Positions 16,993 through 24,488 of a DNA stretch of 64,000 nt are shown here, one piece after another. Source of the DNA: a virus; the IMG/VR virus record IMGVR_UViG_3300036790_000396, positions 1-64,000 of that record, one strand, 5' to 3'. Numbering within the stretch: the stretch's first letter is position 1; each line of letters opens with the position of its first letter. Both the position numbers and the translations under genes were made by a program. Under the pieces are notes generated by a model. It had not been told where the DNA came from. It saw only the letters and a list, made by a program, of their open reading frames with translations, and did no database searches.

Positions 16993-17020
16993 ACTATACC
17001 AAGGTTTATTGGTATTTCAA
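16993..17020 (-). promoter_or_regulatory. Sigma70-type promoter TTGAAA-N16-TATAGT with embedded palindromic operator
   Basis: Operator ATACCAAGGTTTATTGGTAT (16996-17015) is identical to 38047-38066. Confidence 0.75.
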
Positions 17021-17061
17021 GTGGACCCCGGAAGCATGGGAGACAAGGCGGGAGGTGAGGC

Positions 17062-21892: not shown

Positions 21893-22351
21893 ATGCGCGA
21901 CCTCGCGTGCCAGGGCGGCGACCTGGCCCTGTCCGGCAGCCAGCTCGCCACCGTTACCGGCGAGTCCTACATCAGGCAGCGGCTGGCCACTGCTCTCGCA
22001 GAACCATTCGATTCCGACCCGTATGAGACAGGATGGGGAAGTTATCTTGATTCGTGGCTTGGCTCCCCTCTTACGTCCTCCACGCCCGCGCTGGTCGCCT
22101 CCGAGGCGTCCCGCGTGATCAGCATCCTGATCGCGGCCCAGCGGCTGATGATCACCACATGGTCCCTCACGGGCTCCAAGGCCCAGCTCGCTGCCGCCGA
22201 CACGATTGCCGCAGTCCTGTCAGTCAGCGCGCAGCCCAGCGCCGCCGACCCGTCGGCCATGGCCGTGTCCGCTCAGCTCGTCACGCAGGCCGGCGCGCAG
22301 CTGACGGTCATCCGCACGGTGGCCTCGCAGCTCGGCCTGAACCTGTCGTAG
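21893..22351 (+). CDS. Baseplate wedge protein, gp25/gpW-like
   Basis: MRDLACQGGDL..VTG..IRQRL..AL.EP..SDPY..GWGSYL pattern. Confidence 0.8.
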   Translation: MRDLACQGGDLALSGSQLATVTGESYIRQRLATALAEPFDSDPYETGWGSYLDSWLGSPLTSSTPALVASEASRVISILIAAQRLMITTWSLTGSKAQLAAADTIAAVLSVSAQPSAADPSAMAVSAQLVTQAGAQLTVIRTVASQLGLNLS

Positions 22352-22359
22352 AATGCGGC

Positions 22360-22434
22360 TGCGGAGTGGAGGAGCTAGGTTACCTCGTCGGACTCATAAT
22401 CCGAAGATCGCGTGTTCGAATCACGTCTCCGCAA
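22360..22434 (+). tRNA. tRNA-Met(CAT), initiator-like; CCA not encoded
   Basis: Acceptor TGCGGAG/CTCCGCA, D-stem GAGG/CCTC, anticodon stem TCGGA-CTCATAA-TCCGA, T-loop TTCGAAT; TAGAAT -10 box at 22349. Confidence 0.93.
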
Positions 22435-22617
22435 CGTGCGGTAGAGGGGCCCCTGTAGCCGTCGCGGCATGAGGCGCAAGCCGAAGTCTTGAAACCGGGG
22501 TACAGCGCTGAGCGAGTGCAGCGCGCTATCAAGAAAGCGCTGGTCCCTGCGGGGGCGGCTGCCAGGAGGATGAGCAGCCTGAAATAATGCGTCCTCCTCC
22601 CCCTCTTTCCCTGCGCG
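22435..22617 (+). ncRNA. Unidentified structured RNA candidate downstream of the tRNA
   Basis: Nested long-range stems and a possible TCTTGA/TCAAGA pseudoknot; no credible ORF. Confidence 0.5.
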
Positions 22618-22655
22618 CCCCGGAAGCATGAGAGATTCTTCCGGGAGGGACCTGC

Positions 22656-24488
22656 GTGACGACCACTGCGGACGTGAGCAGCCAGATCATCCAGCTGCTG
22701 CAGGTGACGATCCCCGATCTGGACACTTCGGTCGGAAGCGTATCGCGGAAGATCATTGACGCAGTTTCCAGCCAGATAGCGGACGCGTCCATCGATACGC
22801 AGCTACTGACATACTCCTACGACATCTACTCGATGACCGGGGCAAACCTGGATTCTTTCGTCCAGCTGTTCGGCATGACCCGGATCCCCGCAGCCAGGGC
22901 GACGGGCACCGTCACATTCACGCGCACGTCCTCCACGGATACCGTGACCATCCCCGTCGGGACCCAGGTCGCCACCTCCGATTCCTCGGTCATCGTGCAG
23001 ACTCTCACCACGGCGATCCTGCCGCCGGGATCAGCCTCGGCCGCCGTTCCCGTCCAGGCTGTCACCGCGGGACCGGACGGAAACGTATCGGCAGGCTCGC
23101 TGACCGTGATCCTCACGCCCGTCGCGGAAATCACCGCAGCGACGAACCTGGGCGCGCTGACCGGCGGCACCAACCAGGAGACGGATTCCCAGCTGCAGGC
23201 CCGCTGGGTCGCGACGGTCTTCCGCAACATGGCGGGCACCAGCGCCATGTTCGAGGGCATCGCCCTGAACAACCCCGCCGTCACCGCCGCCAACGTGGTC
23301 GGCGCCTCCTCGCAGTGGACCGAGCAGCTGCAGGTCGTGAGCGGCGCTGCCACCTCCACCATCACCGACGCCCAGTACGTCTACCCGGCCGGCGAGACCG
23401 CGGGCAATGACATCGAGGGCGGCGACGTTGCCGTCCCCGGACTGCAGTACACGTGGAACTACGCATCCATCCCGCCGTCCATCACGGTGATCGACTCCAG
23501 CTACTTCCCCTCCGGCGATATCTTCACCCTGCAGTACCAGTACATCGACGCGTGGTCCCGTAACAGCGCGGCGAACGGGATATTCAACCGGGTTGACGTG
23601 TGGTGCGCCGGCCAGGTGGCGACCGCAGCCTCGCAGACGGTGGCGTGGCTCGGCCCCGCAGCGTTTTCCGCGACCTCGACGAACGCTTACTACAATGAGG
23701 ACTTCGTGCGCCCGGACGGCTCTAGCCCTGCCGTGGGGAACTACTTCATCCCGCTGTCGTTCGTGCCGGTCCTCACCATGGACCCCGTCCTGACTATCGG
23801 AGCCCAGCAGTACGGGCTTGCCACTGCTGCCCACCCCCTGGGGACTTCCTCGGGAGACGTCGACTACGCATACCAGATCGTGCACCGCAATGACGCGAGC
23901 GGCTGGGGCCCGTACTCCGAGGCGGGCCTTGAGTGGGAGGCGTCGATGGGACTGGCCTCCGGCACGGCGATACCGGCGGGCTCGTCGGGCGACTACACCT
24001 ACAACGCGGTGCCCCTTCAGGTGCAGCAGGCGATCGACAACTGGCGCCTGGCGAGCATCGACGTGATCGCGCACCAGGCGATCGAGACCTACCTGCGCTT
24101 CTCCCTGGCGGTCATCTTCGACCCGTCGGTCACCTCGTCGGTCACGGTGACCGCCGTCCAGCAGGCTCTTTCCTCGTGGCTGAGCCAGCTCGGGTTCGGC
24201 GCTACCGTCTACCCCTCCAGCGTCATCCAGCAGGTGGAGAACGTGGCGGGAGTCACTGCTGCCCGGTTCCTGACCGGCTCTGACTGGAGCGGCTGGAACT
24301 CCTCGGATCCTGACAGCTTCGACGTGGGCATCCAGCAGACGGCCTCGGACGGCACGACGGTGCTCTCCTCCTACGTGGACACCAACGGCGCCCCGGTGGA
24401 CATCATCCTCGGGGCTGCCCAGATACCGGCGTTCGGGTCCCTGTACTACATCGCCAAAGCCGGGAACTCCTTCGGGTCCTTTGCCTGA
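22656..24488 (+). CDS. Baseplate J-like protein
   Basis: GANLDSFVQLFGMTRIPAARATGTVTF..VTIPVGTQV..AGPDGNV..GGTNQETDSQLQAR. Confidence 0.92.
   Translation: MTTTADVSSQIIQLLQVTIPDLDTSVGSVSRKIIDAVSSQIADASIDTQLLTYSYDIYSMTGANLDSFVQLFGMTRIPAARATGTVTFTRTSSTDTVTIPVGTQVATSDSSVIVQTLTTAILPPGSASAAVPVQAVTAGPDGNVSAGSLTVILTPVAEITAATNLGALTGGTNQETDSQLQARWVATVFRNMAGTSAMFEGIALNNPAVTAANVVGASSQWTEQLQVVSGAATSTITDAQYVYPAGETAGNDIEGGDVAVPGLQYTWNYASIPPSITVIDSSYFPSGDIFTLQYQYIDAWSRNSAANGIFNRVDVWCAGQVATAASQTVAWLGPAAFSATSTNAYYNEDFVRPDGSSPAVGNYFIPLSFVPVLTMDPVLTIGAQQYGLATAAHPLGTSSGDVDYAYQIVHRNDASGWGPYSEAGLEWEASMGLASGTAIPAGSSGDYTYNAVPLQVQQAIDNWRLASIDVIAHQAIETYLRFSLAVIFDPSVTSSVTVTAVQQALSSWLSQLGFGATVYPSSVIQQVENVAGVTAARFLTGSDWSGWNSSDPDSFDVGIQQTASDGTTVLSSYVDTNGAPVDIILGAAQIPAFGSLYYIAKAGNSFGSFA

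Follow-up and report, generated by a model that had tools for sequence, protein, structure and literature searches.

The stretch of approximately 180 nt that lies between a tRNA-Met gene and the baseplate J gene of an uncultured virus (22435–22617 of the analysed window, which covers the initial 64 kb of a virus record of 146,944 bp) had been put forward in an initial annotation as one structured RNA with a possible pseudoknot. As a single structured RNA or ribozyme this stretch was not supported, failing alike in comparison with folds of shuffled sequence, in covariation and in searches of Rfam. The reading that we prefer, at a probability of about 0.6, is that neutral filler, a small cis-element restricted to the lineage and a generic gene leader together make up the region, which is located in a slot that varies between related phages, and that the cis-element, a module of about 70 nt, would serve as an expression signal for baseplate J. 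The finding is an ordinary one, namely a composite intergenic region with a small hairpin and promoter-like signal that is real but occurs in two phages only.

The source record had direct terminal repeats, was rated complete and contained about 68% G+C. The same phage was present in a second metagenome (locus L110, JGI sample 3300036818), with 8 mismatches over 8,833 bases and an identical spacer between the tRNA and baseplate J. The baseplate J protein was 32% identical to its counterparts in cluster C mycobacteriophages and, when window DNA was compared with a phage collection, the tRNA part alone was matched, by cluster C mycobacteriophage tRNA-Met at 82% identity; because of these two likenesses, the host of the phage is likely to be actinobacterial. 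The last gene before the tRNA (21893–22351, + strand, 152 aa, with limits taken from gene calls on the same phage in L110) matched phrog_2669 "baseplate protein" (E 2e-11), and JGI annotates its homologues as "phage baseplate assembly protein W". The gene after the spacer (22656–24488, + strand, GTG start) encoded a baseplate J (gp47/JayE-like) protein (Pfam PF04865, E 3.4e-29), for which 460 homologues were found. The placement of the proposed element amid baseplate genes was therefore correct. The tRNA-Met gene itself (22360–22435, + strand, anticodon CAT) began 8 nt past the stop codon of the W-like gene and was separated from the GTG start of baseplate J by 220 nt. Its limits were 22360–22434/5 by both ARAGORN and Rfam (RF00005, 61.9 bits), and the discriminator A was followed by CGT, so that CCA was not encoded and the proposed element did begin right after the discriminator, as had been stated.

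Essentially all of the helices that had been listed for the element were present in the MFE fold of 22436–22655, i.e., both closing helices, a helix between 22455–22463 and 22554–22562, a GCAA hairpin, a helix between 22503–22509 and 22536–22542 and a side hairpin. This fold was no better than expected from shuffled sequence, the z-score being -1.41 and 18 of 200 dinucleotide shuffles being as stable. Corresponding z-scores were 0.04 for the minus strand of the same stretch, -1.49 for the spacer of L098, the one informative relative, and +1.55 for the 5′ half alone (22436–22527), which was less stable than its shuffles. Of all pieces, the side hairpin alone folded notably well, its z-score in the window being -3.0. 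Closure of the whole stretch, i.e., pairing of its 5′ end with its 3′ end, was reached by 1 of 200 shuffles for the window and by 137 of 200 for L098; we tentatively attribute the above-chance closure in the window to the choice of boundaries by means of those same helices.

No Rfam family could be assigned to the spacer. Thus, in searches of the window and of L098, RF00005 (tRNA) alone passed at permissive E-values, and all non-tRNA matches from Rfam 15 had E-values above 2, far under gathering thresholds. Hammerhead_II (RF02276) was the one ribozyme family to score at all in the element, but its match at 22510–22583 was rejected, with a score of 14.4 bits versus a gathering score of 37 and an E-value of 2.3 in the 251-nt search; the core GAAA of this match was GAUA in L098. 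A T-box-like reading, in which an AUG would be displayed in a loop beside tRNA-Met, was also rejected, there being no Rfam T-box signal up to an E-value of 10. Likewise, an intrinsic terminator was rejected, as no terminator-like sites were found in this region of the window or in L098, the loop of the side hairpin was 17 nt long and no T run was present.

Comparative results were obtained with L098, the only relative with a homologous spacer, whose baseplate J was 75% identical to that of the window, and all covariation reported here rests on these two sequences. Neutral divergence between the two phages is saturated, as judged from four-fold synonymous sites of a neighbouring gene, which were 48% identical. 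After optimal alignment, the 5′ part of the spacer, from 22436 to about 22527–22529, was 51% identical, as compared to 58 of 73 aligned columns in 22530–22617 and 83% identity in the leader of baseplate J (22618–22655). Pairs of the MFE fold inside 22436–22617 were pairable in L098 in 29 of 55 cases, most of the pairs kept being invariant, and those outside 22528–22600 in 20 of 44. Both outer, closing helices fell in a 12-nt deletion of L098, and the 5′ partner of the possible pseudoknot was absent from that phage. Thus, with its closing helices deleted, one pseudoknot arm missing and its 5′ half at the neutral level, the 180-nt unit was not conserved even in the closest relative.

What remained of the proposed structure was its 3′ part. 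Covariation was noted for the side hairpin, where 4 of 8 pairs were changed on both sides in L098, but not for most of the other helices; similarly, the idea of a structured RNA of about 180 nt failed for the whole unit but had support in a 3′ module of about 70 nt, which consisted of the side hairpin with an adjacent short G+C helix and was conserved and covarying between the two phages. That the 3′ portion of this region adopts some structure as RNA is therefore plausible.

The GCAA hairpin fell in the G+C-rich 5′ half of the proposed element (22436–22527, + strand), which also supplied one strand, the 5′ one, to each closing helix and the 5′ arm to the possible pseudoknot. From the comparison with L098, the first 95 nt or so after the tRNA are judged to be unconstrained, diverging at the neutral rate and folding as would any sequence of 68% G+C. 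The spacer contained no ORFs on the + strand, stops being present in all three + frames, and an 84-aa ORF on the minus strand was rejected, as it overlapped the tRNA, lacked similarity to the cargo proteins of relatives and would be shifted in frame by a 2-nt indel that distinguished the module of L098. No remnants of HNH or membrane-protein genes were detected by tblastn in the spacers of the window and L098 (all E > 0.08), and neither an endonuclease ORF nor a tblastn trace of one, as expected for a cassette of tRNA and endonuclease, was found in the window spacer. At the other end of the element, a C/T-rich linker (22601–22617, + strand), which carried the 3′ strands of both closing helices, had 12 of its bases deleted in L098.

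Between these segments, the two-hairpin module (22528–22600, + strand) showed a mean column identity of 84% with L098. Its first helix, between 22537–22542 and 22556–22562, enclosed a 3-bp stem, while its second hairpin, i.e., the side hairpin, consisted of 8 bp between 22565–22572 and 22590–22597 and a 17-nt A/T-rich loop. All 17 pairs of the module were standard in both phages and 5 of these were compensatory (i.e., both sides were changed). By comparison, slid controls were 44–68% paired with 0–2 compensatory pairs, and 21 of 500 shuffles reached the observed values; with two sequences, the covariation of the module is suggestive. Four G.U cells in the alignment of the module would pair on the + strand only. 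The loop of the second hairpin was identical in L098 at 16 of 17 positions, including a perfect block of 14 bases. Comparison of the two sequences indicates that the module is under selection.

The distribution of the module was narrow. Matches to a covariance model were limited to the window, L110 (the same phage) and L098, and blastn of the 220-nt spacer against 96 related loci (L002–L097) found nothing. Exact scans for the loop motif returned 7 matches in IMG/VR, all on unrelated low-G+C contigs, and 19 in GTDB genomes, which were scattered over taxa and about as numerous as estimated for chance. A repeated, MITE-like mobile element was rejected, as the stretch occurred just once in the 147-kb genome and the phage collection matched the tRNA part alone. 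From its conservation and distribution, the module looks to be functional as a small lineage-restricted cis-acting signal, confined to two phages.

The conserved loop also contained a promoter-like element, TGnAATAAT (22580–22588, + strand), of the extended -10 kind. The promoter scan flagged 22559–22588, with 9 of 12 matches plus the TG, where shuffles averaged 0.1 sites. The -10 hexamer, located 67 nt before the start codon, had 5 of 6 matches, including the A at position 2 and the T at position 6, and the 14-base block around it, being identical in L098, preserved a sequence that qualifies as an extended -10 in both phages. The -35 had 4 of 6 matches in the window and was absent in L098; because of its poor -35, the site in L098 was not flagged by the promoter scan. 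Extended -10 (TGn) promoters of the sigma-70/SigA type are common in actinobacteria and their phages. The element resembles these in its TG, single base and hexamer, conserved in both phages, but differs in its location in the loop of a covarying hairpin, in its poor or absent -35 and in its unlikeness to the phage's own promoter type. Extended -10 sites numbered 14 in the 147-kb genome as compared with about 6.6 expected by chance, and about 10 of the 14 shared an obvious phage promoter consensus. The site at 22580 was rejected as a member of this main promoter class, as the upstream consensus was absent. Members of this family of strong promoter-like sites were noted at 17001, 34465, 38061 and 47070 in the window and at 86073, 112953, 120205, 121368, 130267 and 136468/136477 in the genome; most shared an upstream GGTTTAT-type consensus and several were palindromic between divergent genes. 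The members of the family are probably early or host-read promoters with an operator.

Downstream of the linker, a gene-start leader (22618–22655, + strand) contained the motif CCCCGGAAG, a hairpin, a ribosome-binding site and then the GTG start of baseplate J; the 3′ arm of the hairpin (22619–22645) ran into the ribosome-binding site. Exact copies of CCCCGGAAG numbered 10 in the window (378–61840) versus 1.4 expected, and none of 100 shuffles reached 10. In the whole genome the motif, or the looser CYCGGAAG, was found just before many start codons, often directly after the preceding stop; it often formed one arm of a hairpin reaching the ribosome-binding site, and it also headed genes in the relatives L023, L099, L100 and L131. 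The motif is a candidate late promoter, but where it sits, in the narrow gaps between cistrons, may also fit a signal that acts in RNA or translation. Several other copies of the motif were located 10–30 nt downstream of A/T-rich promoter-like sequence (e.g., at 17027, 77030, 82476, 90246 and 124800).

Just 10 nt separated the second tRNA of the phage, tRNA-Asp (GTC; genome 97118–97195), from a CTCGGAAG leader, after which came a ribosome-binding site and the GTG start of a gene; as the long spacer had no counterpart here, a large appendage is no general companion of the tRNAs of this phage. Hairpins in mRNA 5′ leaders are known to mask the ribosome-binding site, and 5′-terminal stem-loops to stabilise processed mRNAs. 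Like hairpins of the former kind, the one at 22619–22645 extends into the ribosome-binding site, and it is found again at other genes. The hairpins of the module are like the latter in their location in the 5′ part of the mRNA predicted to be left after excision of the tRNA; unlike in those cases, the hairpin immediately beside the tRNA end was not conserved here.

The context of the spacer was apparent from the junction between the W-like and baseplate J genes, which was collected from more than 100 loci of baseplate J relatives. In most of these relatives the W-like gene abutted baseplate J with a gap of about 5–40 nt, while a minority had inserts of 200–700 nt. A tRNA-Met was located at the same junction on the + strand in L098, L003/4, L109, L131 and L132 and on the - strand in L099 and L100, and the junction tRNAs had diverged to a mean column identity of 77%. 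Because a + strand tRNA-Met recurred right after the W gene in the former loci, the tRNA is considered on this comparison to be an old resident of the junction, and a variable cargo slot follows it. Contents of the junction included HNH endonuclease genes beside tRNA-Met, on the - strand in L099 and L100 and on the + strand in L109 (phrog_4234 for L099 and L109, E 3e-34 and 1e-24; a weak HNH match for L100), a GIY-YIG-like ORF in L048 that was recognised solely from an N-terminal motif, ORFs for membrane proteins on the - strand in L003, L006, L008 and L131 and a 91-aa ORF in L132. Other inserts were small 70-aa ORFs, a DUF397 gene (L099), AP2-like ORFs and a possible tRNA-Val (L038). Judged from these loci (L003–L133), insertions recur at the W/J junction throughout the phage group, which makes it a hotspot. 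In phage T4, segB is a free-standing homing endonuclease within the tRNA cluster of a large lytic phage (PMC2330249). Like that locus, the nearest relatives L099, L100 and L109 have a tRNA directly beside a free-standing endonuclease gene, and the junction varies between related phages as would a hotspot for homing or cargo; unlike it, the endonucleases are HNH rather than GIY-YIG, and the phage of the window has the tRNA but no endonuclease or detectable remnant of one.

In the reading that we prefer, the module would act in cis as a signal for expression of baseplate J, and would be needed since the tRNA interrupts the tight W-J junction that is typical of most relatives. Two main modes of action can be envisaged. 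An internal promoter is slightly favoured, though at less than an even chance, because the loop matches an extended -10 promoter whose -10 is invariant; transcription would start near 22595 and feed the standard leader. A plain promoter, on the other hand, needs no covarying stem around its -10, and by direct reading of the other relatives with an insert, no consistent promoter-like element was seen ahead of the leader motif. Nearly as likely is action as an RNA hairpin in the read-through transcript, with the A/U-rich loop serving as a site for a nuclease or other protein, and the hairpin could alternatively shield the downstream mRNA once the tRNA had been excised. The RNA mode draws support from a stem that covaries, from G.U pairs and from conservation of the loop. 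An extension of this mode, which we regard as unlikely, is that the module is a previously undescribed RNA element that acts in cis in soil actinophage-like myoviruses; in it, a covarying hairpin with a near-invariant 17-nt A/U-rich loop, and perhaps a short leader ORF, would connect the removal of a tRNA lying within an operon with how stable, or how well translated, the baseplate J message is.

Several other explanations of the region were weighed against this one. That the whole of the approximately 180 nt is one structured non-coding RNA (i.e., a ribozyme, large ncRNA or pseudoknot), co-transcribed with the tRNA and freed by tRNA 3′ processing, accords with the existence of the helices, with an MFE fold that closes the ends at a level reached by so few shuffles of the window, with the start of the element at the processing site of a tRNA without CCA and with the weak Hammerhead_II match. 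Against it are the unremarkable stability of the whole and the instability of the 5′ half, the neutral divergence of that half from L098 with loss of the closing helices and pseudoknot partner, the ease with which shuffles of L098 reach closure, the score and altered core of the hammerhead match, the tRNA-Asp without such a partner and the failure to find a second copy, whether elsewhere in the genome, in the phage collection, in IMG/VR or among GTDB genomes; this explanation is accordingly the least probable of those considered.

Only marginally less improbable is a short leader ORF, starting in the conserved loop, whose translation would open the hairpin over the baseplate J ribosome-binding site and so couple translation of J to its own. 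The possible ORF (22587–22631, + strand) comprised 14 codons in the window and 10 in L098, with its ATG in the A-rich unpaired loop of the module and its TGA in the loop of the leader hairpin, the 3′ arm of which enters the ribosome-binding site. Both codons were in invariant blocks and were in frame in both phages, because the deletion in L098 is of 12 nt, a multiple of three; by our estimate, however, both would be in frame by chance in about 1 of 9 cases. Moreover, neither the sequence nor the length of the peptide (14 versus 10 residues) was conserved, no ribosome-binding site was present at normal spacing, the conserved block reached well upstream of the ATG, and L100, in which the same leader with its TGA was present, offered no start in frame. 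Less remote, though still unlikely, is the explanation that the spacer is what decay has left of a cargo gene for an HNH or membrane protein, or of a small mobile element bounded by terminal inverted repeats, and has no present function. Such genes do occupy the same slot in relatives, the 5′ half of the spacer was neutral and the ends of the proposed element formed an inverted repeat. This origin is opposed by the tblastn results with HNH and membrane proteins, by the lack of other copies of the stretch in the collections searched and, above all, by conservation of the 3′ module far above the saturated neutral level, which decay cannot explain.

If the composite reading is true, there is no tRNA-linked ribozyme or large ncRNA at this locus and the candidate can leave lists of novel RNAs, while the W/J baseplate junction would be a place where tRNAs, homing endonucleases and small genes have been acquired time and again. 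The small conserved signal, in turn, may illustrate the way in which an essential structural gene of a phage regains expression once a tRNA has interrupted its operon, a matter of local interest.

Minor features of the tRNA and its immediate surroundings were also noted. The stop codon of the W-like gene overlapped a -10-like hexamer, TAGAAT (22349–22354), from which a start would fall at about the first base of the tRNA; this hexamer was not conserved in L098. Bacterial initiator tRNAs characteristically have an anticodon stem with three G-C pairs at its base, together with a 1:72 pair that is weak or mismatched. The tRNA-Met of several relatives (L098, 3212–3286; L109, 1262–1340; L003, 2846–2923) had three initiator-like G-C pairs and a weak or mismatched 1:72 pair, and the tRNA of the window (22360–22435) had a U1:A72 pair and just two of the three initiator-type G-C pairs.
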